From Thermoanaerobaculia bacterium (GTDB lineage Bacteria > Acidobacteriota > Thermoanaerobaculia > Gp7-AA8), in NCBI GenBank assembly GCA_035629865.1, contig DASPHC010000146.1, positions 53,420 to 117,419 of the forward strand: a stretch of DNA of 64,000 bases. The letters run 5' to 3'. The notes below the pieces were generated by a model that made no database searches, was not told where the DNA came from, and was given only the letters and a program-made list of their open reading frames with translations. Position 1 is the first letter of the stretch. Every line of letters begins with the position of its first letter. Position numbers and translations under genes: made by a program. This document shows positions 3,262-64,000 of this stretch, one piece after another.

Positions 3262-5553
3262 CTACGGGAGTTGCGCGAGGATGCTGTCGTAGTGGCGGGC
3301 GAGCTCCGGATGACCGCGGTCGTTCAGAATCTGCAAGAGCTCGCGGACCGTCTTCGCGAGTGGCAGGTAGCCGGCGTCGAGCGTCCCGGTCAGAGCCTGG
3401 TTGAACTGCGTCGCGGCGTCAAACGGGTCGCCGGTTCGTGCGGCCTGCAGCGCCGCCTGGAGGCGCAGCCGGTGCGTCTGCTCGTGGTCGGGACCGAGCT
3501 CGCGCTCCGCGATCGCGAGCGCGCGTGCGATGTGTGCGGCGGCCTCGTCGAAGCGGCCGAGCTCCGTCAGCACGGCGCATGCGTTGGCGAGCGTGCGAAT
3601 GAGCTTCGCGTTGTCCGGACCATAATGTTTCTCCTGGATTGCGAGCGCGGCCTCGATCTCATTCGCGGCGGACGCGAAATCTCCCATCCGCTCGAACGCC
3701 ATCGCGATGTTGTTCTTCGTCACACCGAGGTATTTCTCCACGTCCAGCTTCCGGAAGAGCGCCTCCGCTTCACGCAGCAGCGGGAGCCCTTCCGCGGGGC
3801 GGCCCGCTTCCGCGTAGGCGTTGCCGAGGTTGCTGAGGTCCAGAGCGACGACGGCGTGGACGTCGCCGTACGTGCGGCGATCGACGTCGATCTTCTCCTG
3901 AAAGACCGCGATGGCATCCTCGATGTCGCCAGCCTGGCCGCGCAGGATGGCGACGTTCGCCCGCAGGGTCACGAGCGCCGGATCGCTCTCTCCCCGGAAG
4001 CGAACCATCCACCGCGCGGCGGCGTCGAACGCGGCGGCCGCAGCATCGAGGTCGCCGCGATGGCGCAGGTACATCGCGGCGCGATTCAGCAGAGGTCCGG
4101 CGTCGTCGTTGACGGCTCCCTCCTCTTCGGCGAGGCGGCACGCGGCGCGGCCGTGCGGCAGGATCCGCGCGGCCGTATGCCACTCGCGGGAATCCTCAGG
4201 ACTCATGGGGAACGCGAGGTTCACGGCGGCACATGCTTTCCGTGTCGCGTGCGCCCGCTCGTCCGCCGGCATCTGGTCGCGAATGACGAGCTGCACGAGC
4301 TTGTGAATGGCGACCGCGCGTTCGTCCGCGCGGATCAGCGAGTACGCGCGTGCCGCGGCAATGGCTCTGTTCACCGCCAGCTTGCCTTCGCTGTCGTTCA
4401 GCAGCGACCGCGGGATGTCGTCGGGCGCGACGAACGCGCAGAGCATCAACGGCTGTGCCACGTCGCGGATGTTGTCGATCGACAGCTTCCACGTCGCGGC
4501 AATCGTACTTTTGGTGTCGTGCCGCACGGTGCGGAAGGATTCGAGATAGTCGGCAATCGAGGACGCCGTTCGCTCGACGTACGCGGCCGCGTGTTCGAGC
4601 GCGAGAGGAAGATCGCCGAGGTCGTGCGCGAGCTCGTCCGCAGCCTCAGCATTGGTTGCGCCGCTGCGCGCGAGAAACAACTTCACCGCGTCGCTGCGCG
4701 GAAGCACGCCGACGGGAAGGGGTGTGCCCGCGCCGGGCTTCGGCGGATTGGGAGTGGTCACGATGACGTGTCCCGGCGCGCCGTCGGGAAGATACGGCAT
4801 GACGTCCGCCGGATCGTCAGCATCATCGAAGATGAGGAGCCAGCCGGGCGTGGCGGCGAGATGGTTCTTCACCGCCTCGACGATGGCGTTCTGGTCCGCC
4901 CAGTCTCGTTCCTCGAGCGCGCGCTCATCTGCGAGCATCGCGTAATCGGAGGCGAGGGTCGACGGGTCGTCCGCCCGGATCCACCAGATGGTCGAGTACT
5001 CGTGCGCGTGGCGGTGCGCGTATTCGATCGCGATCGAGGACTTGCCGGCGCCGTCCAGCCCGACAAGCACCGGCACTCGCTTGTGCGCGAACGCTTCGCC
5101 GAGTTGTACGAGCACGTCCTCGCGTCCGGTGAAATGGGTGTTGCGCGGCTGCAGGTTCGAGACCCGCCACACTTCGGCGAAGGCGCGCGGCAGATGGTCG
5201 TCGACGTCGGGCCACATCACGACCTGGTGCCGCGCGAAAGGACGCGTACGCCAGTCACAGGCGTCGTCGAGGATGATTGGGATCACGCGAGTCCGCTCGC
5301 CCGCCATCGCGGCCTCGGTTTCGAGCGTGCAGAAATCCGAGTCGAGGAAATCCTTGCTGACCAGCAGCAGCGCGAAATCCGATGCCCGGATCTGCAGGAG
5401 GATCTCAGGATGGTACTGCTCGCCGGCCACGAGCTCCCGGTCGTGCCACATCGAGAGCCTGCCGTTGATTTCGAACGGGCGCAGACGTTCGAGCAGTTCA
5501 TCCTTGCGCTGTTCGTCTTCACGTGCGTACGACACGAAGACGTTGAGGGGCAT
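3262..5553 (-). CDS. TIR-NB-ARC(STAND NTPase)-TPR protein
   Basis: The N-terminal TIR domain begins MPLNVFVSYAREDE and carries an SDFCTLE motif compatible with the catalytic Glu of NADase-type TIR domains. The P-loop is GLDGAGKS, with a hhhhDD Walker-B at LLIFDDADD. The C-terminal 300 aa are TPR-like repeats of the LGNAYAEAGRPAEGLPLLREAEALF type. Confidence 0.85.
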   Translation of the reverse strand: MPLNVFVSYAREDEQRKDELLERLRPFEINGRLSMWHDRELVAGEQYHPEILLQIRASDFALLLVSKDFLDSDFCTLETEAAMAGERTRVIPIILDDACDWRTRPFARHQVVMWPDVDDHLPRAFAEVWRVSNLQPRNTHFTGREDVLVQLGEAFAHKRVPVLVGLDGAGKSSIAIEYAHRHAHEYSTIWWIRADDPSTLASDYAMLADERALEERDWADQNAIVEAVKNHLAATPGWLLIFDDADDPADVMPYLPDGAPGHVIVTTPNPPKPGAGTPLPVGVLPRSDAVKLFLARSGATNAEAADELAHDLGDLPLALEHAAAYVERTASSIADYLESFRTVRHDTKSTIAATWKLSIDNIRDVAQPLMLCAFVAPDDIPRSLLNDSEGKLAVNRAIAAARAYSLIRADERAVAIHKLVQLVIRDQMPADERAHATRKACAAVNLAFPMSPEDSREWHTAARILPHGRAACRLAEEEGAVNDDAGPLLNRAAMYLRHRGDLDAAAAAFDAAARWMVRFRGESDPALVTLRANVAILRGQAGDIEDAIAVFQEKIDVDRRTYGDVHAVVALDLSNLGNAYAEAGRPAEGLPLLREAEALFRKLDVEKYLGVTKNNIAMAFERMGDFASAANEIEAALAIQEKHYGPDNAKLIRTLANACAVLTELGRFDEAAAHIARALAIAERELGPDHEQTHRLRLQAALQAARTGDPFDAATQFNQALTGTLDAGYLPLAKTVRELLQILNDRGHPELARHYDSILAQLP

Positions 5554-5562
5554 GCCGCGATT

Positions 5563-6032
5563 CTACACGGTCATCACGAGTCACCTTCACCCTTGGATGA
5601 CGACCGCCTTCAGGCGCACACGAACCGCCGTCACCTTGATAACGACCGCCATCAGGCTCATCACGAATCACCTTCATCCTTGATAACGACCGCCTTCCGG
5701 CTCGCAACGACGTCCTTCCGGTTCGCAACGACCTCCGTCGGGTTCAATACGACTGTCCTTCCGGCGCGCAACGACGTCCTTCAGGTTCAATACGACTGTC
5801 CTTCCGGTTCGCAACGACCTCTATCAGGTTCAATACGACTGTCCTTCCGGTTCGCAACGACCTCTATCAGATTCAATACGACTGTCCTTCCGGTTCGCAA
5901 CGACCTCTATCAGGTTCAATACGACTGTCCTTCATCGTCGATAGCCACTTCCTTCGCCGTCGATGGTCATCTCCATCGTCCTTGATAGCTGCCTCTATCG
6001 TCCTTGATAGCTGCCTCTATCAACCGTTGCCC
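5563..6032. repeat. Array of about 20 head-to-tail degenerate 21-22-bp repeats, such as gcaacgacctctatcaggttc and aatacgactgtccttccggttc, in the TIR-gene upstream region
   Basis: Direct reading shows the units abut without unique spacers. The 21-22-bp period is not a multiple of 3. The last five or six copies are near-identical and earlier copies are more diverged. Confidence 0.8.
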
Positions 6033-6105: not shown

Positions 6106-6867
6106 ATGCCTCACGTCACCTCACATCCCCCTGGTTCCTTCTGCTGGGTCGAGCTCGGGACGACGGACGTCAACGCGGCCCGGACGTTCTATACGCAGCT
6201 CTTCGGCTGGACGGTCAACGAGATTCCGATGGGAGAGTTCGGGGTCTATACGATCTTCCAGAAGGATGGCCGCGATTGCGCGGCCGGCTATGAGCTGATG
6301 TCTAACCAGCCCGGTGTCCCGCCGAACTGGCTGTCGTACGTCGCGGTCGCCGATACCGATGCGGCGGTCGGGAAGGCGAAGGGCCTCGGCGCGGCGGTGG
6401 TCTCCGAGCCGATGGACGTCTTCGACAGCGGCCGGATGGCGGTGCTGGCCGATCCGCAGGGAGCGGTGTTTGCGGTCTGGCAGGCGAAGGAGCACATCGG
6501 GGTGCAGATCCGCGATGAGCCCGACACGCTCTGCTGGAACGAGCTGCAGGTGCGCGATCTCGAGGCGGCGAAGAAGTTCTACCCCGCGCTTTTCCCCTGG
6601 CGGATGAAGGAATCGCCGGAGTACACGGAGTGGCATCTCGGCGAGAACGCGGTCGGCGGCATGATCGTCTCGCAGTGGCCACCCGAGGTCCCGTCAGTCT
6701 GGCTGCCGTACTTTGCGGTGACGGATTGCGAGGGGACGGTGGCAAAGTCGGGCTCGCTCGGCGGCTCGACGATCGTGCCGCCGATGGAGATTGCGAATGT
6801 GGGGAGGATGGCCGTGCTGTCGGATCCGCAGGGGGCGGTGTTTGCGGTGATCCGGCTGGCGTTGTAA
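6106..6867 (+). CDS. VOC-family protein with two tandem glyoxalase/bleomycin-resistance-like domains
   Basis: The two halves are internally duplicated (GRMAVLADPQGAVFAVWQ and GRMAVLSDPQGAVFAVIR), typical of tandem VOC domains. An AGGAGGA ribosome-binding site precedes the ATG. Confidence 0.8.
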   Translation: MPHVTSHPPGSFCWVELGTTDVNAARTFYTQLFGWTVNEIPMGEFGVYTIFQKDGRDCAAGYELMSNQPGVPPNWLSYVAVADTDAAVGKAKGLGAAVVSEPMDVFDSGRMAVLADPQGAVFAVWQAKEHIGVQIRDEPDTLCWNELQVRDLEAAKKFYPALFPWRMKESPEYTEWHLGENAVGGMIVSQWPPEVPSVWLPYFAVTDCEGTVAKSGSLGGSTIVPPMEIANVGRMAVLSDPQGAVFAVIRLAL

Positions 6868-20207: not shown

Positions 20208-20374
20208 TGGTTGTCGGTTGTCAGTTGTCGGTTGTCTGCGCCTTTTCGCGGAAAAGGGACAGCAGCTCAGATCGACCACGGCAAGATACGTTTGTCATCC
20301 CTCGCTCGACGCTCGGGATGACAGAAGACTTAGGCGCTACCGGTTCGGACAACTGACAACCGACAACTGACAAC
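20208..20374. repeat. MITE-like element with 27-bp terminal inverted repeats made of GTTGTC hexamers
   Basis: ggttgtcggttgtcagttgtcggttgtc at 20208 pairs with gacaactgacaaccgacaactgacaac at 20349. The core contains hairpins ccttttcgcggaaaagg and tgtcatccctcgctcgacgctcgggatgaca. A one-armed relic lies at 28783-28812. Confidence 0.5.
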
Positions 20375-27732: not shown

Positions 27733-27850
27733 AAGTGGGGGTGAGGGGATGGGACCAATAGGACGAATAGGACCTATGGGACCGATAGGACGGACAGCCT
27801 TCCCACTCGTCCCATCGGTCCCATCAGTCCCATTCGTCCCATCGGTCCTG
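27733..27850. repeat. GGGAC/GTCCC 9-mer palindromic hairpin element
   Basis: atgggaccaataggacgaataggacctatgggaccgataggacgg pairs with tcgtcccatcggtcccatcagtcccattcgtcccatcggtcc. Confidence 0.7.
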
Positions 27851-28932: not shown

Positions 28933-28980
28933 GACCACCTTCGCGAGCCGCGCTGCTCGCAAACGTTCGTTGAAGTCGCG

Positions 28981-29055
28981 GGCCCGTAGCTCAGTGGTAG
29001 AGCACCTGGCTTTTAACCAGAGGGTCGTAGGTTCGATCCCTACCGGGCTCACCAG
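28981..29055 (+). tRNA. tRNA-Lys (anticodon UUU)
   Basis: Cloverleaf by hand. Acceptor stem GGGCCCG/CGGGCTC, anticodon loop CUUUUAA, T-loop TTCGATC, 3' CCA. Confidence 0.9.
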
Positions 29056-29084
29056 CCCGCCCCCGCACGCATGCACCAGTCACG

Positions 29085-29160
<76 letters not shown>

Positions 29161-29197
29161 GCGGCACGGCCGCCGGCGTTGGTTGGCCAAGCCTTCT

Positions 29198-29608
29198 TCA
29201 GGGTTTGTCATCGGCCGGCGACTTCCCGGCGAACTCGCTCACCACGCGCCCTTCCCATACTTCTTCCCACGTGACGCCGGGAACGCGGCTGTGGATCTCG
29301 ACTCGCAGCAGACCGCCGAACGACAGGATGTCCCCGCAGATGAAGTCTGCCGCGGCATACTCCGGGTCGAACGAGCCCCAGGCGGCAACGGCGCGTCTCG
29401 CGTTCTCCCCGTTCTCGAGCGTCGGCTCGATCAGGACGTCGAGGTCACGCGTCGTTCGATAGGGGATGTGCGCCAGGACCGCGATCCCCCCGATCACTAC
29501 ATAGGCCACGCCTTCTCTGTTGAGTGATTCCAGGAAATCGGCAAAGTCCTTCGCCACCGTCCAGTCCTCTCTTCGTCCACAACTCGTAGGCGCTGTCGAG
29601 CAGGGCAA
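29198..29608 (-). CDS. Minimal nucleotidyltransferase (MNT, pol-beta fold) protein
   Basis: hGG...DhDhh signature in VVIGGIAVLAHIPYRTTRDLDVLI. No HEPN partner seen. The start is uncertain (possible GTG at VAKDF). Confidence 0.45.
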   Translation of the reverse strand: MPCSTAPTSCGRREDWTVAKDFADFLESLNREGVAYVVIGGIAVLAHIPYRTTRDLDVLIEPTLENGENARRAVAAWGSFDPEYAAADFICGDILSFGGLLRVEIHSRVPGVTWEEVWEGRVVSEFAGKSPADDKP

Positions 29609-29818
29609 TCAGAGCGTCCATGCGTTCTGCTGGCGTCGCGGCATATGCATCTTCAACCTCCTGCCGCATGAGCTCCTCGCGAGATGTGCTGAGGGAAAAG
29701 CGATGGCTCCTGGCGCGAGGTCTTGCCTCAGGTCTCGTTGTGCTCTCGTCAGGGACTTCCGGGTCGGCGCCATCCATGCTTCCCGATGCTACAGCGGTTC
29801 CCCGCAGTTCGCGCGACC

Positions 29819-29849
29819 AATGACACCGCCCTTTCATGGCGGCGACACG
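29819..29849 (+). other. Partial duplicate of the tRNA-Glu anticodon arm (att-like scar)
   Basis: tgacaccgccctttcatggcggcgacacg differs at 2 of 29 positions from tRNA-Glu 29107-29135. Confidence 0.55.
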
Positions 29850-29999
29850 CAAAAGAGAAAGGGAAAGCTCTGACCCCATCGGCGATACTAGAAGGAACCG
29901 AAAGGTGACTGTCGAGGTACTTCCGTCACTCCCTCGGGTGGAGAGGGCGCCCTCCTCAAATCCATATGACCGGTCTTGAGCCGGATGAGGAGGAGCTGT

Positions 30000-30197
30000 A
30001 TGCGTCGTGTGTTCTATTCGGTGGGTCGAGGTGTGTCCGCAGTGTTTCTGGTCGTCGTTCTTGCGGGAAGCGCGTTCGCCGCGCCGCAGGAGCGGGACCG
30101 GGAGTTCCGGGAGAAGAAGAATCCTTCGCCGATCGTGAACGTCGTGAAGAAGGTCGTCCGCGCGTTCGGGGATCTCCTCGTGACGCCAACCCCGTAG
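30000..30197 (+). CDS. Small secreted peptide (66 aa)
   Basis: GAGGAGGAG ribosome-binding site 5 nt before the ATG. Signal peptide MRRVFYSVGRGVSAVFLVVVLAGSAFA. Confidence 0.4.
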   Translation: MRRVFYSVGRGVSAVFLVVVLAGSAFAAPQERDREFREKKNPSPIVNVVKKVVRAFGDLLVTPTP

Positions 30198-30198
30198 G

Positions 30199-31362
30199 TC
30201 ACAGCTCGTAGCTGAACTCTCGCTCCGGGTAGGTCCGGAGCGAGAGTATGTACTCGCGGACGTGGGTGACGAGCGAAGTGGAGGCTCTTTGTGCCGTGAT
30301 GGCTTCGCTGAGATATCCGAGAGCGGTGATCGCCCGGCTGTTGAGATTGGCGACGGTGAATTCCCGCACGATCTTCCGGGCAAGAGTCTCCGCCTGGGAG
30401 TGCCGCCCGAGTGCGAGCAGGGCCTCGACGATGTCGAGGCCGGAGATACCCGCTTCTTCCGGCATCGCATAGCTCAGGAACCGCCTTCGGACCGTGCGAA
30501 GGTGGGTAATCGCCCGTTCGTATTCGCCGCGGCGAACGAACAATCGTCCTTTCCCGGCGTCCGGCTTCAGGGCGTCGAGCGGACGTCCGGCTTTCTGGAA
30601 GAAAACGATGCCTTTGGTGAAGTTGGCCTCGGCTTCCTGTAGGTCGCCAAGCTCGACCGAGCAGAGACCGATCGCATGATGAAGGGCGGCGAGGCTTTCA
30701 TCGTCCAGGTTGGAGCTCGAAGCGAGGATGAGAAGGTAGGTTTCCCGGGCTTCCCGGTATCTTGCAAGGCGTTGGAGGAGCGCTCCCTCGGCGATTCCCA
30801 CCATGACGACGAGCCGTTCGTCGTCGTAGTCGCGAAAGACCTGTTTGCTCTCGGTAAGGAGCGGCATCGATTCTTTGTGCCGTCCGATCTCCTGGTAGAC
30901 GATCGCCAGGTTGAACCGGACGACGGCGATGTCGTACTCGAGCGAGCCGTGGTCGGGACTGGATACGAGTAACGACTCCGCGTGGTGGAGGGCCTTCGCG
31001 GATTCCTCATATCGGGCGAGAGTGCGGAGCGCCTTGCCGAGGTCTTTCCACGCGTAGGCAAGGATCTGCGAAAGGACCACAGCCGGGTAGGCGGTCGCCG
31101 GGATTGCCTCGGCTGCGGCTACCGCAAGTTGAGCTAAGGCAAGCGCGTACTTCGAGTCGCGAGAGTAAGCTTCGGCGAAGAGTTGGCCGATCCGCTGGAC
31201 CGCTCCGGAATTCTGCAGGTCGGGGTGCTCGGCAAGCTGGGGCCACTTGGCTCGCGGGGTCTTGTTCAACAGGGGCTCGACGGTGACGGCGGCTCTTTCC
31301 CGCTCGGCGTAGATCGACCGGATGAGGGCTCGGAACCGGGCATCACGGAAGGCGCGGCGCAC
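30199..31362 (-). CDS. TPR-repeat protein
   Basis: TPR-like helices of the SKYALALAQLAVAAAE type. The putative GTG start shares its G with the TAG stop of the upstream sigma-fragment ORF. The Arg-rich N-terminal extension in the track is rejected. Confidence 0.55.
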   Translation of the reverse strand: MRRAFRDARFRALIRSIYAERERAAVTVEPLLNKTPRAKWPQLAEHPDLQNSGAVQRIGQLFAEAYSRDSKYALALAQLAVAAAEAIPATAYPAVVLSQILAYAWKDLGKALRTLARYEESAKALHHAESLLVSSPDHGSLEYDIAVVRFNLAIVYQEIGRHKESMPLLTESKQVFRDYDDERLVVMVGIAEGALLQRLARYREARETYLLILASSSNLDDESLAALHHAIGLCSVELGDLQEAEANFTKGIVFFQKAGRPLDALKPDAGKGRLFVRRGEYERAITHLRTVRRRFLSYAMPEEAGISGLDIVEALLALGRHSQAETLARKIVREFTVANLNSRAITALGYLSEAITAQRASTSLVTHVREYILSLRTYPEREFSYEL

Positions 31363-31634
31363 TACGGAGCACCCTTCCCGAGGTGCCGCCTGGCGGCGTG
31401 GGTCACGGCGACGGTCAGCCAGGTCTCGACATTGGGCATCGTGTCGAGGTGGCGGATGGCCGCGGCGAGGACTTCGTCGACGAGGTTTTCGGCATCGTCC
31501 CGCGGAATTCCGAAGTCGCGAAGGACGAGGTCTACGAGAGACTCGAAGTATCTCTCGTGCAACGAGGCATGTGAGTCCTTGTCGTTCGGGGGATCGTTGG
31601 ACGGGACCATATCCGAGCCGGTGGACACTACCAC
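31362..31634 (-). CDS. ECF sigma-70 region-2-like fragment lacking region 4 (possibly truncated or pseudogenic)
   Basis: DAENLVDEVLAAAIRHLDTMPNVETWLTVAVTHAARRHL matches the ECF region-2 pattern DAEDLVQE...F...WLY.IA.N. No region 4 in any downstream frame. Confidence 0.4.
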   Translation of the reverse strand: MVVSTGSDMVPSNDPPNDKDSHASLHERYFESLVDLVLRDFGIPRDDAENLVDEVLAAAIRHLDTMPNVETWLTVAVTHAARRHLGKGAP

Positions 31635-32725
31635 TCCAGGCGGTAGTAAACAATTAGTTCTATCCTTATGACTCTAATGAGAGTCTTATGCGGTGTTGGG
31701 GTTCGCCCCTCAACGTGCGGGAGGAGGAAGATTCGTCCCGGTGGCAATGCGGCAGTGCTTCGGTGGGGTTCCGTCGTCGTCATCGGCGTAGACAACGGCG
31801 GTCACCCAGGTAACCACTCGCGGCTACCGCTGGAGGTTCGCTCGCATCCGGAAGCGGGACGATCTCCCTGCCGGAGTAGCCGCGGCGGCCTGGAGGGGTC
31901 GGTGCGCCGTGTCGCGGGGTGGCGAGTGTGGTCGCTCGAGTGAAGGCGATGGCTCACCGGGGTGGGTTGCCGGACCCGCCGGAGTAGCCTCGGCAGGTTG
32001 AGGGAGTAGGCACGCCTCCATCGCGGAGCTCGTCGCGTTCCCATCCTCATCACGAACGCCGGCTACTCCGCGTTGGAGCCCGTCCTACTCCGCGATGACC
32101 GCTGTACTACTCGACCAGGGCACTGCTCCTGCTCCGTGAGGAAGCGCGGGTCACTCCGGCGGGGGTGCGCTCCATCTCCACAAGGAAACGCGACCCGGCC
32201 CGTCATGGACGCGGGGCTACTTCTCGCGGGCCGCCGGCTACTCGGCCAGGTCAACGCTCCCACTCACTGATGGGGCTCGACCGACTCACTCGTGCGGCCG
32301 GACACACTCTTCCATGGAGGTTGCTTTCCATAACCACGCATCCAAATGCAGTCCGGCATGACCCTGTAACAGTTTGTTCACATTGTGAATTGGACCGTCC
32401 ATTGTCGGGCCGTTGACTGCGGCTCGAAGCGGGCGTACCTTGATCGTGCCGCCGGGGCTGGTTGAGCCATGCTGGTATCGCCGGTGCGCAGCGAGGGAAC
32501 GCCCCGGTCGATCGCCGGAAGCCCGGACGCTGCAGGGGACGGTCCGGTCCGAATCCGGGTCGCCTTCGGGAGTCGAGCAATCGCCCCAGCAGCACCTCCG
32601 ATCGGCGGGAAGCGGACGCGCTTCCCGATCCATTCCGAGTCCGGTCCTCGGGAATCCCATCAACCGCAGCCACTGGCGTGTGGCCCGTGGCACAACCGTC
32701 CGCATGGACAGATTGGAGGAGAGCC

Positions 32726-33253
32726 ATGACTTCGAAAGTCATCCCCGAAAAGTTCAATAGTCCCACCGTTGACCCACTGACCCCGGAGATTGCGGTGCAG
32801 GAGATCCGCACGATTCGCGATCGGATCCCTTCGTTCGCCCTGTTGCGCGTCGCCGAGACGCTGTCGCTCACGCGCGCCGCGACCATCAGCATGGATTTCA
32901 TTCACGCCGCGATCAATGCCGTCGCCGCGCTGCTTGCGCTCCGAGGAGCGATCGGGCGCGACGCGATGGATCTGCGTCTCGAAGTGGAGGAGGCGGCCCG
33001 CTGGTCTCAGGTCCTCGATGAGATCGACGCGCTGCGCCTCGGCGTCATCGGCGCGATCCGCATGCGCCGCTACCGCCTCGGAACGATGGCGTTCCGGGTC
33101 TACCAGCTCAGCCGGAGTCTCGTCCGCGATGAGGAGAACGCCGTCCTCCTGCCGCACATCGACGCGATGAAGCGCGCCGCCAAGTTCGGCAAACACCGCC
33201 CGCAGGGCAAGGCGGATCCGCAGCCGGATGACGCGCCCGTCCCGAAGGTGTAG
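32726..33253 (+). CDS. Hypothetical protein
   Basis: GGAGGAG ribosome-binding site 5 nt before ATG 32726. The longer upstream extension in the track is Arg/Ser-rich junk. Confidence 0.5.
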   Translation: MTSKVIPEKFNSPTVDPLTPEIAVQEIRTIRDRIPSFALLRVAETLSLTRAATISMDFIHAAINAVAALLALRGAIGRDAMDLRLEVEEAARWSQVLDEIDALRLGVIGAIRMRRYRLGTMAFRVYQLSRSLVRDEENAVLLPHIDAMKRAAKFGKHRPQGKADPQPDDAPVPKV

Positions 33254-33301
33254 TGCAAAGGCCCCCGCGCGCTCGCGGCACGCGGTAACATCCCACCCCA
33301 G

Positions 33302-33332
33302 CCGGGCGCGCCGCGACGCGCCCGGCGTTTCC
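33302..33332 (+). terminator. GC-rich hairpin (ccgggcgcgcc-gcgac-gcgcccgg) resembling the cspA terminator stem
   Basis: Read from the sequence. Only a weak T-tract (gttt). Confidence 0.35.
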
Positions 33333-33399
33333 GGGCTCCGGCGTCGAAGTGCCGCCCGTCATTTGTGAACGCAACGTGCATCAAATCGGAGGTCTCTCC

Positions 33400-34263
33400 A
33401 TGGCTGATGGTTCGATTTCGAACATTCTCGTCCCCACGGATCTGAGCGAATTCGGAAAGATTGCGCTGCAGTGGGGGGTGCGGTTCCGGGATCTGTTCGG
33501 GGCGCGGATTACGCTGCTGCACGTGGTCGACGTCTATCCGCCCGTCGCGGTGATCGAGATCCCGGAGCCGGCCGTGCTGCCCAATCTCGCCGAGGTCATG
33601 GCGAACCTGGAGGAGGCGTTGAAGCGCCATGCCACGGCGAGCGTCGGGGATGCGGCGGCGGACATCGATCTGAAAGTCGACCAGGGTCTGCCGGCGCCGG
33701 TCATCCACGATACGGTGAAGGAGTCGGGCGCGGATCTGGTGATCATGGGGACGCACGGCCGCCGCGGCTGGCGCCGTCTGCTCCTCGGCTCGGTCACGGA
33801 GACCGTGCTGGTCCACGCCGAGCGTCCGCTGCTCACTCTTCTCGCGACGTCGCTCGTGCCCGATATCCGCAAGATCGTCTGTCCGGTGAACTTCACTCCG
33901 ATCGCGCGGAAGGCGCTGGACCTGGCGAGCGAGATCGGGCAGAAGTTCGACGCGCAACTGATCCTCGTCCACGTATCGGAGCGCGAGGGCGAGCCGCACC
34001 CGCTCCCGCTCGACGACCACTTCGAGCAGTGGGTGAATCCGATCGTCCGGCAGCGCCTGCAGTACTCGCGCGTGGTGCGGACCGGAAATGTGGCCGAGGA
34101 GGTGCTGCGGCTGGCGGAGGAGGAGAAGGCGGACCTGATCGTCGTCGGCGCGGAGCACCGCGGTTTCCGCGACGCGACGGTCATCGGCACCACGACGAGC
34201 CGGGTGGTCCGATTCGCGGATCGTCCGGTGCTGACGGTGCCTGCGCGCGAGGGCGAAGCGTAG
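33400..34263 (+). CDS. Tandem universal stress protein (UspA x2)
   Basis: Two Usp domains, each with ILVPTDLS...ADLIVMGTHGRRG and the ATP-binding G-2x-G-9x-G(S/T) region. GGAGG ribosome-binding site. Confidence 0.85.
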   Translation: MADGSISNILVPTDLSEFGKIALQWGVRFRDLFGARITLLHVVDVYPPVAVIEIPEPAVLPNLAEVMANLEEALKRHATASVGDAAADIDLKVDQGLPAPVIHDTVKESGADLVIMGTHGRRGWRRLLLGSVTETVLVHAERPLLTLLATSLVPDIRKIVCPVNFTPIARKALDLASEIGQKFDAQLILVHVSEREGEPHPLPLDDHFEQWVNPIVRQRLQYSRVVRTGNVAEEVLRLAEEEKADLIVVGAEHRGFRDATVIGTTTSRVVRFADRPVLTVPAREGEA

Positions 34264-34274
34264 CGGTACGCAGG

Positions 34275-34697
34275 TCAGCTCTTTTCGCCCCGCTCCACCG
34301 TCAGCGGCGTGAAGATCTCCGCCTGGAGCAGCCACCCGTCCTTTGTGTAGTGCCATTTGGCGGCGTACACGCCGGCGAGCTCCATCGGGCCGTCGTTGGC
34401 CATGAGGGTGCCGGTCCAGCGGCCGTGTTCTTCGGCCATGCCCCATTCTTCGTTGACGTGGATCTCCTCGGGGGTGCGGCCGTAGGTGGAGGTGGCGTCG
34501 CGGGCGAACATGTCGGCCCAGCTGTTCATGCTCTGCTCCCGCCCGGTGCGCTGCAGGCTGCGGGCGGTGACGACGTGGTAGTCGGGAAGGAAGTAGGCGG
34601 CGATGCCTGCGGGGTCGCGGCGGGTGATGGCGTCGTTGATCGCGGTGCGGGCGGTGCGGATGGCTTCTCGGCTGTCTTGCGTCATCGACGCGATCAT
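34275..34697 (-). CDS. SnoaL-like/NTF2-fold protein (DUF4440-like)
   Basis: Size and composition pattern. Weak assignment. Confidence 0.5.
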   Translation of the reverse strand: MIASMTQDSREAIRTARTAINDAITRRDPAGIAAYFLPDYHVVTARSLQRTGREQSMNSWADMFARDATSTYGRTPEEIHVNEEWGMAEEHGRWTGTLMANDGPMELAGVYAAKWHYTKDGWLLQAEIFTPLTVERGEKS

Positions 34698-37205: not shown

Positions 37206-39557
37206 TTACTCCACCTCGTACGTCACGCTGTCCGAGCGTCCGATGTCGTCGACCACCACCACCCGGTGCGTGCCGCGGGCGGGGCGGACGAAGGCGCGGC
37301 GGGTGGGGGGGAGGGAGGCGATGAGGGTGCCGTCGACGTACCAGTAGAGGCGGTTCACCTCGGCGGGGACCTGGGCCTGGAGGAGGATCTCCTGGTAGTC
37401 GATCGGCGCGTCTCCACGGATGCGGTACGGCGTGGTGGCGTCGGGGGAGACGATGCGGGGCGCTTCGTCGGCCGCAACTTCGCTGCAGGCGGCGCTGAGC
37501 GGCGGCATCCCTTCCACGGCCTGCCCCTGCGCGTGCCAGTAGGCGACCAGCTCGGCGGGGTAGACCACCGAGATCTCCGGCTCGTGCGGCCGTGTCGCGA
37601 CGCACTCGCCGGCGAGACGCTCGCGGGTGGTGCGGTCGACGAGGATCCGGCGGTGGTAGGTGCAGCGGCGGAGCTGGGTGCGCTCGGGGATGTAGGGGAT
37701 GGCGATCGTCTTCGCGCAGTCGGGGCCGGGGAGCTCGTGGCTCAGCGCGCAGACGTCGACGCGCTCGATGTCCGCGTACTTCGTGTCGGGACGCGCGGCG
37801 CGGCCTTCGATCGTCCGGAAAAGGTCGAAGAGCAGCGGGGCGGCGTGCTCGGAGCCGGAGATCCCTTTCTGGCCGCGGCCGTCGAAGTTTCCGACCCAGA
37901 CTCCGATCGTGTAGCGCTTCGAGAAGCCGACGCTCCAGGCGTCGCGGTGACCGTACGACGTCCCCGTCTTCCACGCCACGGTCGGCGCTTCTCTCGTGAG
38001 ATCCCATGTCTGCGGGAGGTCGGGGCGTTTCACTTCGCACAGGATCTCGGTGATCATCTGCGACGCCTCGGCGGAGAAGATCCGCTCCCCCTCCGGGGCC
38101 GGTCCGCGGAACATTTGCGCAGGCCGGTGCACGCCTCCCTCGGCGAGGGTGCTGTAGAAGTTGGTCAGGTCGAGCAGCGTGACTTCGCCCGCGCCGAGGA
38201 TCAGCGAGAGGCCGTAGGAACCGGGACGCCGGTCGAGCGTGGAGAGGCCGCCTTTGCGCAGGACGCCGAGAAAGTCGTCGAGACCGACCCGCGCCAGCAG
38301 CCGGACCGCGCTGGCGTTGAGGGAGAGCACCAGAGACTCGCGAACCGTCAGGCGGCCGCGATAGGTGCCGTCGTAGTTCTCGGCGACGTAGCCGGAAAAG
38401 TCGGTGGGGATGTCGAGGAGGTACGAGTCGGGCAGCAGGTGCCCTTCGTCGAACGCCTTCGCGTAGAGGAACGGTTTGAGGGTCGAGCCGGGAGAGCGGC
38501 GGGCGAAGGCGCCGTTGACCTGGCCGTCGAAGCGGCGGTCGAAGAAGTCGGCGGAGCCGACGAGGGCGCGGACGGTGCGGCTCTCGTTCTCGATCACGAC
38601 CACCGCGGCGTTCTCGATGCCGAACGTCCGGAGGGAGCCGATTCGCGCCGCGACCTGCCGTTCGGCGATCTTCTGGAGTCCCTGGTCGAGGGTCGTGAAG
38701 AGACGCGGCGCGCCGCCGCCGCGGGCGACGGCGAGGTCGGTGAAGTGCGGCGCCGTAAACGGCGTGCGCTGCAAGCGGGTGGGGATCGGCTGCAGCAGCG
38801 CTTTCTCGATCTCGGCCGGGGGAAAAGCGCCGCGGCTGCCGAGCTGGCGCAGCACTTCGTCGCGCGCGGCACGGGCCTGTTTCGGATCGCGCAGCGGGTC
38901 GTAGCGATTCGGCGAGCGGGGGAGCGTGGTCAGGAGGGCGATCTCGCCGAGGGAAAGCTGGGAGGGCTTCTTCCCGAAGTAGAAGTACGAGGCCGCGCCG
39001 ATCCCTTCGATGTTCCGGCCGTAGGGAGCGATGTTGATGTAGATCTCGAGCAGCTCGCGCTTCGAGTAGCGCCGCGACAACTGCAGCGCGCGGAACGCCT
39101 CGATCCCTTTGGAGCGGAGGCTGCGCCGCTTCGGCTCGGCCATCCGCGCGATCTGCATCGGGATGGTGGACGCGCCCGAGACGACGCCGCGCGCGCGCAG
39201 GTTCGTCCACGACGCGCGCACGACTGCCAGCGGGTTGACGCCCGGATGCCGGTAGTACCAGCGATCCTCGGAGGCGACGAGCGCCGCGATCAGTTCCGGC
39301 GGCACCTCGTCGAGCGTCACCGGAATCCGGTACTTTTCGTCGCGCGGCAGCACGATGCGAAGCTCCCGCCCTTCACGGTCATAGATCACGGTGGCGGGCG
39401 GAGGGCGGAGCGCGTGGATGGGCGGCGGAAAGACAACGTCTGCGATGAAGGTAGAAAGCAGAAGGCAGAAGGCAGAAGTGAGAAGGATCGCGCAGCGCTT
39501 TGTGCGAGCGCTGCTTCCTTCTGCCTTCTGCCTTCTGACTTCTGCCTTGATTCTCAT
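37206..39557 (-). CDS. pbpC: Penicillin-binding protein 1C (transglycosylase-transpeptidase)
   Basis: Transglycosylase motif EDRWYYRHPGVN. Transpeptidase motifs STLKP, SLN and KTGTS. The ATG overlaps the upstream stop (ATGA). The track's 1180-aa ORF is an artefactual 5' extension. Confidence 0.9.
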   Translation of the reverse strand: MRIKAEVRRQKAEGSSARTKRCAILLTSAFCLLLSTFIADVVFPPPIHALRPPPATVIYDREGRELRIVLPRDEKYRIPVTLDEVPPELIAALVASEDRWYYRHPGVNPLAVVRASWTNLRARGVVSGASTIPMQIARMAEPKRRSLRSKGIEAFRALQLSRRYSKRELLEIYINIAPYGRNIEGIGAASYFYFGKKPSQLSLGEIALLTTLPRSPNRYDPLRDPKQARAARDEVLRQLGSRGAFPPAEIEKALLQPIPTRLQRTPFTAPHFTDLAVARGGGAPRLFTTLDQGLQKIAERQVAARIGSLRTFGIENAAVVVIENESRTVRALVGSADFFDRRFDGQVNGAFARRSPGSTLKPFLYAKAFDEGHLLPDSYLLDIPTDFSGYVAENYDGTYRGRLTVRESLVLSLNASAVRLLARVGLDDFLGVLRKGGLSTLDRRPGSYGLSLILGAGEVTLLDLTNFYSTLAEGGVHRPAQMFRGPAPEGERIFSAEASQMITEILCEVKRPDLPQTWDLTREAPTVAWKTGTSYGHRDAWSVGFSKRYTIGVWVGNFDGRGQKGISGSEHAAPLLFDLFRTIEGRAARPDTKYADIERVDVCALSHELPGPDCAKTIAIPYIPERTQLRRCTYHRRILVDRTTRERLAGECVATRPHEPEISVVYPAELVAYWHAQGQAVEGMPPLSAACSEVAADEAPRIVSPDATTPYRIRGDAPIDYQEILLQAQVPAEVNRLYWYVDGTLIASLPPTRRAFVRPARGTHRVVVVDDIGRSDSVTYEVE

Positions 39558-63600: not shown

Positions 63601-63960
63601 GGCCCAGGTCATGACGATGTGCCCCTTCGCCAGCGTGTCGCGCGCCGGCCAGGCGGCGGGGCGGAGGGTACTGTTGATGTTCAGCCCGAACAGGAACCCC
63701 CGCAGTTTCTGGCCGGGGTCGAGGAACTGCGGATAGCCGTTGACGAACTGCGCCGGCTTCGAGTTGAAGGCCACCGCCGTCCCGAACTCCGCCCCCGTGA
63801 ACTCGAACCACTCGCCGCCGTGCGCGAGCGCGTTCGCAAAGTACGGAGTGTTGTAGTAGGCGACGTGGCTCGGGTGATACCCCACCGGCCGGAAGATCGC
63901 GGGATCGACCTGGGCCTGAGCCGTCAGGCACAAGGCCAGGGCAAGGAGTGCTCTCTTCAT
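60655..63960 (-). CDS. Large secreted protein (glycoside-hydrolase-like N-region?) with an FN3 domain and a C-terminal HLIELRTA repeat module
   Basis: Signal peptide MKRALLALALCLTAQAQ. I trimmed the start to ATG 63960, since the track's start lies inside the GTCCCAT repeat. The FN3 domain and tail are paralogous to the 45629 gene. Confidence 0.7.
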   Translation of the reverse strand: MKRALLALALCLTAQAQVDPAIFRPVGYHPSHVAYYNTPYFANALAHGGEWFEFTGAEFGTAVAFNSKPAQFVNGYPQFLDPGQKLRGFLFGLNINSTLRPAAWPARDTLAKGHIVMTWAGNADVRLVNCTFQAGESNGAATGSISNGRRVYLCSAALQTIEIHAIQTPITDLKVWLAPPDDPATPAVNENQTGTLEGELFHPLLLDRIADADWGFIRFMDWGNTNASPQQEWSDRRRPGHIFQNGIITARAPSSGSDPNRETGVAFEHMVALCNATGRNMWITIPHLATPEYITKLARLIRFGSNGSEPYTTTTPSAEFPPLDAGLKVYVEFSNEIWSSGFAFAQGNWAQEQAVIAGLATNANDLAGRARFTGRRFCDTWRIFQDVFGGTSRLVRVAAIFTANNTYSEAFLEEIGTYGITLSPQVRPDVLAVTTYFGNGIQDFVNDEGFTAGKLFNDPYWTSPAFASHLTIAFDEWKRRMLAGDASTGAGPDATGIGGGFSESLRTLPNETLGYSLPIVAYEGGPSLFTNTIDLGAQSGGVPTDDHVTTFVEAMNRDPRIADVYRIHLDLAKSKGLWTHTPYVDSSQWGRFGQWGHLENLEQPPAGAPKYALMLEHFSTFSTLKHIDTPAGLVPSFTTNAGMTPGIVGQAYSQDIVTSGGNGARTITVIGAFLEPGLSIAAAPAAGNLRISGTPTTSRKNYILARVQDADGDPAWRIFTLQTFGGPGTLVQSDFRGDDPALHRPWTLTFVLSPKVTWSGWNIGAGLIPRAGDDAFFFSISGPAAEPGSTLAQALAEQEYLTATITPASGPLDLRGATFAFAIRRTGDHSPRRYALFSSIGGFAEANALYTSEAVQSFDHDEHEHLVTLPNTAPFSAVNAAVEFRIYTFSGKFDGHLASLTGFKLTEEVPDGPPAAATNLVATATGATQVALTWTASPFAASYQIFRRSGSGSESPIGTSVVAAFTDTTAAASTAHLYRVKAVADGGTSGFSNGSLATTVVFTDEPLGLQSTRVKRTHLIELRTAVNAVRVLAGLTAAAFTDSVVTAGSTKVRTVHLTELRNALSSALTSLGLPAPAFSSGTTTGSKVLLAHVQELRALVK

Positions 63961-64000
63961 AGGACTAATGGGACCCATAGGACCTATAGGACCTATAGGA
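63961..64000. repeat. GGGAC/GTCCC 9-mer repeat, truncated by the window edge
   Basis: aggactaatgggacccataggacctataggacctatagga. Confidence 0.5.

Follow-up and report, generated by a model that had tools for sequence, protein, structure and literature searches.

In the 64,000-nucleotide stretch of a Thermoanaerobaculia genome analyzed here by computation alone (contig DASPHC010000146.1; the whole stretch is hereafter called the window), the interval 31654-32725 is non-coding and is probably the upstream control region, together with the 5' untranslated leader, of the gene that follows it on the plus strand, p175 (32726-33253), which encodes an all-helical protein of 175 amino acids. From its upstream end the interval carries an array of repeats with a period of about 22 bp (31873-32310), a promoter-proximal layer composed of a direct-repeat box, a palindrome and a sigma-70-type promoter, and a leader of about 275 nt (32450-32725) with at least seven helices (P1-P7), the pairing of which is maintained by compensatory changes in related loci. 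Under the mechanism proposed here, the array would serve as a double-stranded DNA scaffold, on which a protein or a protein oligomer binds in register upstream of the promoter; transcription would then start at around 32448-32450, and the folded leader most likely controls the expression of p175 in cis by binding either a small molecule or a protein as its effector, perhaps the p175 protein. With respect to its nature, the best-supported assignment of the leader is a new structured cis-acting RNA that is absent from Rfam.

Absence of protein-coding sequence from the interval

The initial annotation, for which the letters of the DNA were read without database searches, had noticed no credible open reading frame (ORF) in this interval, and the present analysis agrees. 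The spread of GC content among codon positions is flat (0.02-0.12 over 31650-32700) compared with 0.26-0.56 in the flanking genes, and six-frame translation of the interval gave no Pfam match at E<=1. By the same two measures, neither a frameshifted protein gene running across the interval nor the decayed element that had been offered as one interpretation gained any support.

Covarying helices in the leader RNA of p175

Upon nhmmer search with the segment 32360-32730, matches were obtained just upstream of a p175 homologue in 11 loci, with E values from 2e-39 to 5e-4, even though the proteins of these loci are only 47-70% identical to p175. From helices derived by hand in the sequences, a covariance model was built for each half of the leader (R1, 3' half; R2, 5' half), and these models replaced RNAalifold on the raw MAFFT alignment, where the structure was poor because the tips of the hairpins vary in length. 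Both models gave one match per locus, always abutting the start codon of p175, with scores of 47-123 bits, and R1 in addition found two loci that were not in the seed, L006 (E = 2e-5) and the 5'-truncated L008 (E = 0.007). All other matches of R1 and R2 in 163 kb had E values of 0.06 or higher.

The leader, as transcribed from the plus strand, begins with helix P1 (32450-55 with 32481-86), which encloses the hairpin P1a with the conserved loop GGUUGAG, followed by P2 (GCAGCG at 32488-93 with CGCUGC at 32528-33), which encloses a first CGAUCG box (32509-14), by P3 (32535-43 with 32559-67) and by P4 (about 32568-87). A second CGAUCG box (32599-604) precedes P5 (32607-14 with 32619-26) and P6 (32634-39 with 32647-52), and the conserved single-stranded UCAACC (32660-65) separates these from P7 (32669-91), which, although GC-rich, lacks a subsequent U-run. 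The last helix, P8 (32698-709), lies in front of the Shine-Dalgarno sequence GGAGGAG (32715-21). The G-U pairs that are frequent in P1 and P3 are compatible with the plus strand only.

Support for these helices came from comparison with controls in which the pairing partners were slid by one to three columns. In the 5' half, 88.5% of the cells were paired, against 37-49% in the slid controls, double changes occurred in 53 cells (7-17 in the controls), and the covariation score was 0.336, the controls reaching no more than 0.096; the corresponding values for the 3' half were 77.1% against 34-48%, 47 against 7-18, and 0.258 against at most 0.114. Neither score was reached in any of 500 shuffles, but all these pair counts were taken from model-fitted alignments, in which pairing is inflated, and the slid controls share this bias only partly. 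Double changes were found in 34 of the 63 pairs of the leader, the compensatory changes being mostly in P1, P3, P5 and P7, while P2a (GCAGCG/CGCUGC) is invariant and P8 is poorly aligned, with 52% pairing. The minimum-free-energy fold of the single sequence recovered P3 and P5-P8. Covariation among relatives, which had been suggested as a check on the region, was thus detected in the helices of 32450-32725. The proposal of a structured noncoding RNA in the interval therefore holds for its 3' quarter, while the GGAGTAG and CTACTCC segments to which it had been attached take no part in this RNA.

Screening of the whole window with Rfam 15 (4227 models) at gathering thresholds detected only two tRNAs, and when the E value was relaxed to 10 for the region 31300-33000, a single chance match was obtained with 14 bits against a threshold of 100; the Rfam search that had also been suggested thus assigned the region to no family. 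Viral contigs gave 24 matches to a pattern derived from the leader, all of which were judged by R2 to be chance matches (at most 21 bits, compared with 68-123 bits for true members). In a search of the literature on riboswitches of Thermoanaerobaculia and on intergenic tandem repeats with a two-turn period, nothing relevant was found.

A pseudoknot between the two CGAUCG boxes is possible, with 73% pairing and three double-changed pairs, but 222 of 500 shuffles gave equal values and both boxes are palindromic. A tertiary pair between the P1a loop (GGUUGA) and UCAACC was considered but gained no support, as it reached at least 6 bp in about seven of 15 loci and was mostly no better than shuffled sequences. 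One may also speculate that the CUCCC strand of P4 acts as an anti-Shine-Dalgarno sequence.

In the two closest relatives, L002 (2160-2185) and L022 (1215-1240), the P1a hairpin (CCGGTTGAGTCATGCYGG) is repeated at the tip of P3. This duplication suggests a modular unit, for example a binding site, made up of the hairpin with its conserved loop. In L011, a 14-nt repeat, TCCGAGAAAACGAT, is present in three copies at 2916-2970, directly before the start of the p175 homologue and in place of P8 and the Shine-Dalgarno sequence.

Promoter-proximal elements

The box TGTAACA-GTTT-GTTCACA (TGTAACAGTTTGTTCACA; 32365-32382, plus strand) consists of two similar 7-mers about 11 bp apart and is conserved in the alignment of 15 loci, at about 67-84 nt upstream of the putative transcription start. 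It is unique in the window even when three mismatches are allowed, where none is expected, and it is probably a direct-repeat site for a transcription factor. Next to it, just upstream of the -35 element, is the palindrome AATTGGAC-CG-TCCATT (32388-32403); in other loci, as judged by eye, a palindrome occupies the same position with different inner bases, for instance AAATAGTCG..CGACTATTT.

The predicted sigma-70-type promoter of p175 is composed of a -35 element, TTGACT (32413-32418), a spacer of 17 nt and a -10 element, TACCTT (32436-32441), on the plus strand, and these hexamers are conserved across the loci as TTGNCN and TAC(C/T)TT. Since the first helix of the leader begins 8-9 nt past the -10 element in every locus, the start of transcription is placed at around 32448-32450. 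A sigma-54 promoter at TGGCAC (32687) was also considered and rejected, because, as judged by eye, it has the wrong spacing and lacks conservation; this sequence is the 3' strand of P7.

Organization of the 22-bp repeat array

The three GGAGTAG segments to which attention had been drawn are indeed present and clustered on the plus strand, at 31873, 31981 and 32003, the positions first assigned to the motifs being off by 2-5 nt. Among the three complementary segments reported with them, two are CTACTCC (32063 and 32085), but the third, placed at 32232, is in fact the one-base variant CTACTCG at 32238. A total of five of the 10 matches to GGAGTAG or its complement in the 64 kb fall within 220 nt, the expectation for the whole window being 3.2. 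The arms carrying the motif are 71-82% complementary over 17-38 nt, and the fold of 31860-32320 was better than those of all 100 shuffled sequences (z = -2.94), so that the nested helices that had been proposed between these segments are physically feasible.

The reason for this complementarity is that the array is made of two opposed blocks of one repeat of about 22 bp. In the left block (31873-32047), with the core GAGTAG, good units are found at 31873, 31981 and 32003, separated by multiples of about 21.7 bp, and the intervening units are decayed. The right block (32048-32310) contains about 12 units of about 21.8 bp, with the core CTACTC or NNACTC at the end of each unit on the plus strand, in the orientation opposite to that of the left block. 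When the right block is written in rows of 21.8 nt, the cores appear as CTACTC or as variants one to two bases off (CTGCTC, TCACTC, CATCTC, CCACTC, CGACTC and ACACTC) and the spacers differ from row to row. The tetranucleotide ACTC occurs nine times in 281 nt (32040-32320), where 0.65 is expected, and its phase coherence at a period of 22.0 (0.945) was matched by none of 2000 random placements. The self-match at lags of 22, 44 and 66 was 0.398, 0.392 and 0.439, respectively, compared with a maximum of 0.381 among 200 shuffles, and Tandem Repeats Finder (TRF) also gave a period of 22 for this block.

A distance of 22 bp corresponds to about two turns of B-DNA, and therefore every core of 6-7 bp (CTACTC or GAGTAG) faces the same side of the helix. 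The cores have kept their phase while the spacers have diverged, a pattern expected of selected binding sites. From this arrangement we infer that a protein could bind along the array.

Arrays at related loci and upstream of other genes

The same layout, that is, an array, the box with the palindrome, the promoter and a leader of about 275 nt, was found before the p175 homologues in most of about 18 metagenomic or metagenome-assembled genome (MAG) loci. A gene-free stretch of 600-930 nt precedes every p175 homologue for which enough upstream DNA is available, and the flanking genes vary from locus to locus. In 14 loci (the window, L002, L003, L005, L006, L009, L010, L011, L012, L013, L015, L020, L023 and L024), TRF arrays of up to about 12 copies end 350-550 nt upstream of the p175 start, with periods of 21, 22, 42-44, 63-65, 86-88 or 129. 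The association reaches down to L020, the homologue of which is only 31% identical, and in this locus a second array block ends 51 nt before the provisional start codon.

The unit sequences of these arrays are unrelated between loci, and only the period of 21-22 bp is invariant. Many of the units are inverted repeats of 7-8 bp and others are purely direct; some of the arrays consist of two opposed blocks as in the window, whereas those of L003 and L006, and a second array of the window at 5571-6021, are all-direct. Folding is favorable for the L003 array as well (z = -2.6), by means of small local hairpins. As only the period is conserved, and this period equals two turns of B-DNA, the function or constraint should lie at the level of double-stranded DNA and not in an RNA fold. 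Since equivalent arrays are often all-direct, as in L003 and at 5571-6021, the nested-helix fold is not a conserved property of the related loci, and the interpretation of the GGAGTAG and CTACTCC segments as a nested-helix RNA is not supported, these segments being upstream of the conserved promoter and their sequence being kept in no related locus.

Arrays of this kind are not confined to the upstream regions of p175. The second array of the window (5571-6021) contains about 17 direct units of the type ACGAC..CCTTC..GGTTC with a period of 21.5, unrelated to the unit of the p175 array; a 43-bp double unit, 92% identical over 5.3 copies, is followed by 2.3 copies of CTCTATCGTCCTTGATAGCTGC. It fills the gap between two divergent genes, a TIR-STAND-TPR gene with a ThsB-like TIR domain (3262-5553, minus strand) and a glyoxalase-family gene (6106-6867, plus strand). 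Arrays in exact 21-bp register were also found away from the p175 homologue in L010 (285-660) and L008 (1470-1760), that of L010 being composed of two opposed blocks, eight copies of TTTACCTCGCGAA and then nine units containing AGGTAAA, upstream of an ORF for a small membrane protein. Altogether, 46 of the 59 TRF rows with a score of at least 60 in 164 kb (the window plus the loci) had a period of 21, 22 or a multiple thereof, although some of these rows overlap and the loci had been picked for carrying p175. In this lineage, phased arrays are thus a general feature of intergenic regions.

The p175 family

The only gene that always accompanies the array, the promoter and the leader is p175. 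A hypothetical protein encoded on a 222-kb contig of a Thermoanaerobaculia MAG is 100% identical to its product, and homologues in metagenome assemblies are 42-70% identical, the alignment-based scan reaching down to 31%. Neither an exact-sequence look-up of p175 nor a scan of genome contigs with the single protein detected relatives, which were obtained by the search for homologous proteins and the alignment-based scan. Profile search of 1.84 billion cluster representatives gave a family of 816 representatives at E<=1e-3. No relative of p175 was detected in Pfam, NCBIfam, PHROG, PADLOC or PDB, and the AlphaFold2 model, with a predicted local distance difference test (pLDDT) score of 85, gave no fold match. 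Invariant arginine and tryptophan residues (R92, W93, R114 and R115) and a basic C-terminal tail characterize the protein.

Evaluation of alternative explanations

Several points weigh against the assignment of the interval as the control region and leader of p175, in addition to the inflated pairing in the model-fitted alignments. The fold of the single leader sequence is not unusually stable (z = -1.06). As to an expression platform, there is no terminator-like site in 31500-33400, and no conserved helix hides the Shine-Dalgarno sequence, P8 ending 5 nt short of GGAGGAG. The promoter at 32413-32441 went undetected in the generic consensus scan, because TACCTT agrees with TATAAT at three positions only, and the predicted transcription start and the presumed co-transcription of the leader with p175 are derived from these sequence features. 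The phase test for the left block of the array alone was not significant (five GAGT, coherence 0.735, p of about 0.7). Finally, since arrays of the same period but different sequence precede unrelated genes, the array cannot be regarded as specific to p175 or as pointing to a single binding protein, which weakens the candidacy of p175 itself as an array-binding protein. A further challenge is that the arrays might be functionless by-products of a bias of this lineage toward tandem duplication of about 21-22 bp by slippage, only the promoter and the leader being functional, as could be expected from one period recurring with unrelated sequences before several unrelated genes and in most of the TRF rows. 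This explanation is considered unlikely, because p175 is preceded by an array in nearly every locus, over a range of 31-70% protein identity and at a similar distance from the start codon, and because the spacers of the window array have decayed with the 6-bp core remaining in phase, which argues for selection on the core and not for recent slippage. If instead the array region (31870-32250) were itself transcribed, GGAGTAG and CTACTCC could pair into nested long-range helices of a structured noncoding RNA, in agreement with the complementarity of the arms, the stable fold of 31860-32320, the folding of the L003 array and the inverted repeats within many units elsewhere. Such an RNA is nevertheless unlikely: the region sits upstream of the conserved promoter, neither its sequence nor its block arrangement is conserved, so that homologous long-range helices do not exist, the complementarity is an automatic consequence of one repeat being arranged in two opposed blocks, no Rfam family matches, and a strict period of 21-22 bp has no rationale in RNA, yet is exactly two turns of DNA. 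Origin of the interval from a protein gene by decay or frameshift, or from a mobile element as its remnant, is very improbable; no direct support was found apart from the occurrence of decay nearby, where the sigma-fragment and TPR frames are out of frame with each other, and the lack of Pfam matches and of a codon-position signal is accompanied by conservation of the layout in more than 15 loci and by indels that are not multiples of three.

Alternatively, the array could belong to a mobile element, integrated or former, as its iteron- or centromere-like site, in which case p175 would be the cognate DNA-binding protein and regulate its own gene. Rep proteins with iterons, and SopB with the 43-bp sopC repeats, are binding proteins that autoregulate beside their repeats. 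The period of 21-22 bp, the tens of copies and the lineage-specific sequence have the classic look of iterons and sopC; no gene other than p175 is always found together with the array, the flanking genes differing in each locus, and the window copy is located 3.5 kb from two tRNA genes, in a stretch of lower GC content. In comparison with the iterons of plasmids R6K, pSC101, P1 and F, which are tandem direct repeats of 17-22 bp, and with sopC of F, the window array is alike in its tandem period of about 22 bp (43 bp in sopC), its many copies, its element-specific sequence, the frequent internal palindromes of such arrays and the adjoining promoter of a small gene. It differs, however, in its chromosomal setting, in lacking a relative of Rep, ParA or ParB and any DnaA box (at most one mismatch) in the region, in lacking an adjacent AT-rich unwinding element, the single AT-rich stretch lying some 200 nt off, and in that the same kind of array precedes unrelated genes in the same genome. 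No adjacent gene for a Rep initiator of the winged-helix family was recognized, p175 being without a match and its neighbors being the sigma fragment, TPR, Usp and SnoaL genes. p175 resembles no Rep, ParB, ParR or other DNA-binding family in either sequence or fold, and searches of 72,556 plasmids and 50,697 phages gave no homologue of it; the contigs bearing p175 (149-222 kb) look chromosomal. No ParA-, ParM- or Rep-type Pfam domain was found in the annotated window genes (29198-34697) or in the fetched loci, the latter judged by the precomputed Pfam labels of their called genes only, and the same genes showed no operon for a ParA, ParM or TubZ NTPase of the kind that partition centromeres have. 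Altogether, an origin as such a site appears improbable. A bolder extension of the control-region assignment would take the array, the leader and p175 as a self-contained nucleic-acid device, in which p175 is a new binder both of the phased DNA array, on which it would assemble in register, and of its own leader, and the other arrays represent a cis-architectural class throughout Thermoanaerobaculia, with promoters controlled in this lineage through long and rapidly diverging arrays of helically phased sites; in this combined form the idea is rather unlikely.

Comparison with known systems

For the leader, two sub-models remain, a metabolite riboswitch and an operator bound by p175. The leader resembles orphan riboswitch candidates and other large 5' leaders in its position between promoter and start codon on the coding strand, in its multiple covarying helices and conserved unpaired segments (GAGCAGCG, CGCUGCAGG, CGAUCG twice and UCAACC), and in its tie to one gene family. 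It differs in that its size of about 275 nt exceeds that of most riboswitch aptamers, and in that it has neither an Rfam 15 match nor a recognizable terminator or platform sequestering the Shine-Dalgarno sequence. The only gene associated with it, p175, has no annotated relative that would point to a ligand. With autoregulatory leaders such as those of ribosomal proteins and of thrS, the window shares a structured leader strictly coupled to one small protein, and the helical nature of p175, its invariant arginine and tryptophan residues and its basic C-terminal tail may be counted as further likeness, but p175 has no recognizable RNA-binding domain or fold, and there is no other natural RNA target known for the leader to mimic.

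Repetitive extragenic palindromes (REP) and bacterial interspersed mosaic elements (BIME) are dispersed intergenic sequences often containing the tetranucleotide GTAG. The window array is similar to these in being composed of short GC-rich intergenic repeats, in its clusters of opposed orientation and in its core GTAG/CTAC. In contrast to REP and BIME, its unit is not dispersed, as the other five GGAGTAG matches in the 64 kb of the genome examined are at chance level; the second array of the window has an unrelated unit; and REP clusters have no strict two-turn period. An array of clustered regularly interspaced short palindromic repeats (CRISPR) was rejected, as its repeats should be 23-50 nt long with unique spacers, and the window unit is 21-22 bp in total without unique spacers.

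Should the leader prove real, it would add a large and well-covarying class of cis-regulatory RNA from an almost uncultured class of Acidobacteriota. It also provides a first handle on the function of the unannotated p175 family with its 816 representatives, because whatever binds the leader would show what the protein responds to. The arrays of 21-22 bp are a second and independent lead, as they recur before p175 across deep divergence with complete turnover of sequence, and their presence before both p175 and unrelated genes suggests an uncharacterized, lineage-wide way of building promoter-upstream regions.

Neighboring genes and other repeats in the window

The genome of the window is high in GC. 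On the plus strand the interval is followed by p175, a tandem Usp gene and a SnoaL-like gene. On the other side, two reading frames on the minus strand adjoin each other in different frames, a sigma-70 region-2 fragment of 90 amino acids with a Pfam score below threshold (31362-31634) and a TPR reading frame (30199-31353). The pair (30199-31634) contains no region 4, and can be attributed either to frameshift or decay of a sigma-TPR gene or to an error in the MAG assembly. The interval had also been proposed as a regulatory leader for these genes, but since the leader is read on the plus strand toward p175, it does not serve the sigma-fragment and TPR genes on the minus strand.

The AT-rich stretch reported at the upstream end of the interval was located at the inverted repeat GACTCT (31670-75)-AATG-AGAGTC (31680-85), around which the GC content falls to 0.53-0.57. 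A weak sigma-70-like candidate site on the minus strand, TTGAGG (31713-31708) and CATAAG (31690-31685) with a spacer of 17 nt, overlaps this repeat and was not called by the consensus promoter scan. Judging from its sequence and location, the AT-rich inverted repeat may be part of the promoter for the divergent sigma-fragment and TPR genes.

Past the genes for tRNA-Lys and tRNA-Glu (28980-29159), the GC content is lower (0.58-0.65 compared with about 0.68-0.72 elsewhere; 28980-31700 of the window), and within this stretch about 600 nt (29550-30200) carry no coding-frame signal. The stretch 28980-31700 could be the remnant of an island inserted beside the tRNA genes, and no integrase was seen there. 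In the short gap between an alpha-2-macroglobulin-like gene and a PBP1C-like gene (39447-39548), two opposed heptamer arrays, GAAGGCA in 5.7 copies (39447-39486) and CCTTCTG in 4.6 copies (39517-39548), have the potential to fold into a long hairpin. Tandem 14-mers, GTTGTCGGTTGTCA and GACAACTGACAACC, make up an inverted pair at 20210-20236 and 20348-20374, 138 nt apart, and related 9-nt repeats of the GGACCAATA and CATAGGACC types are located at 27752-27848 and 63958-64000.

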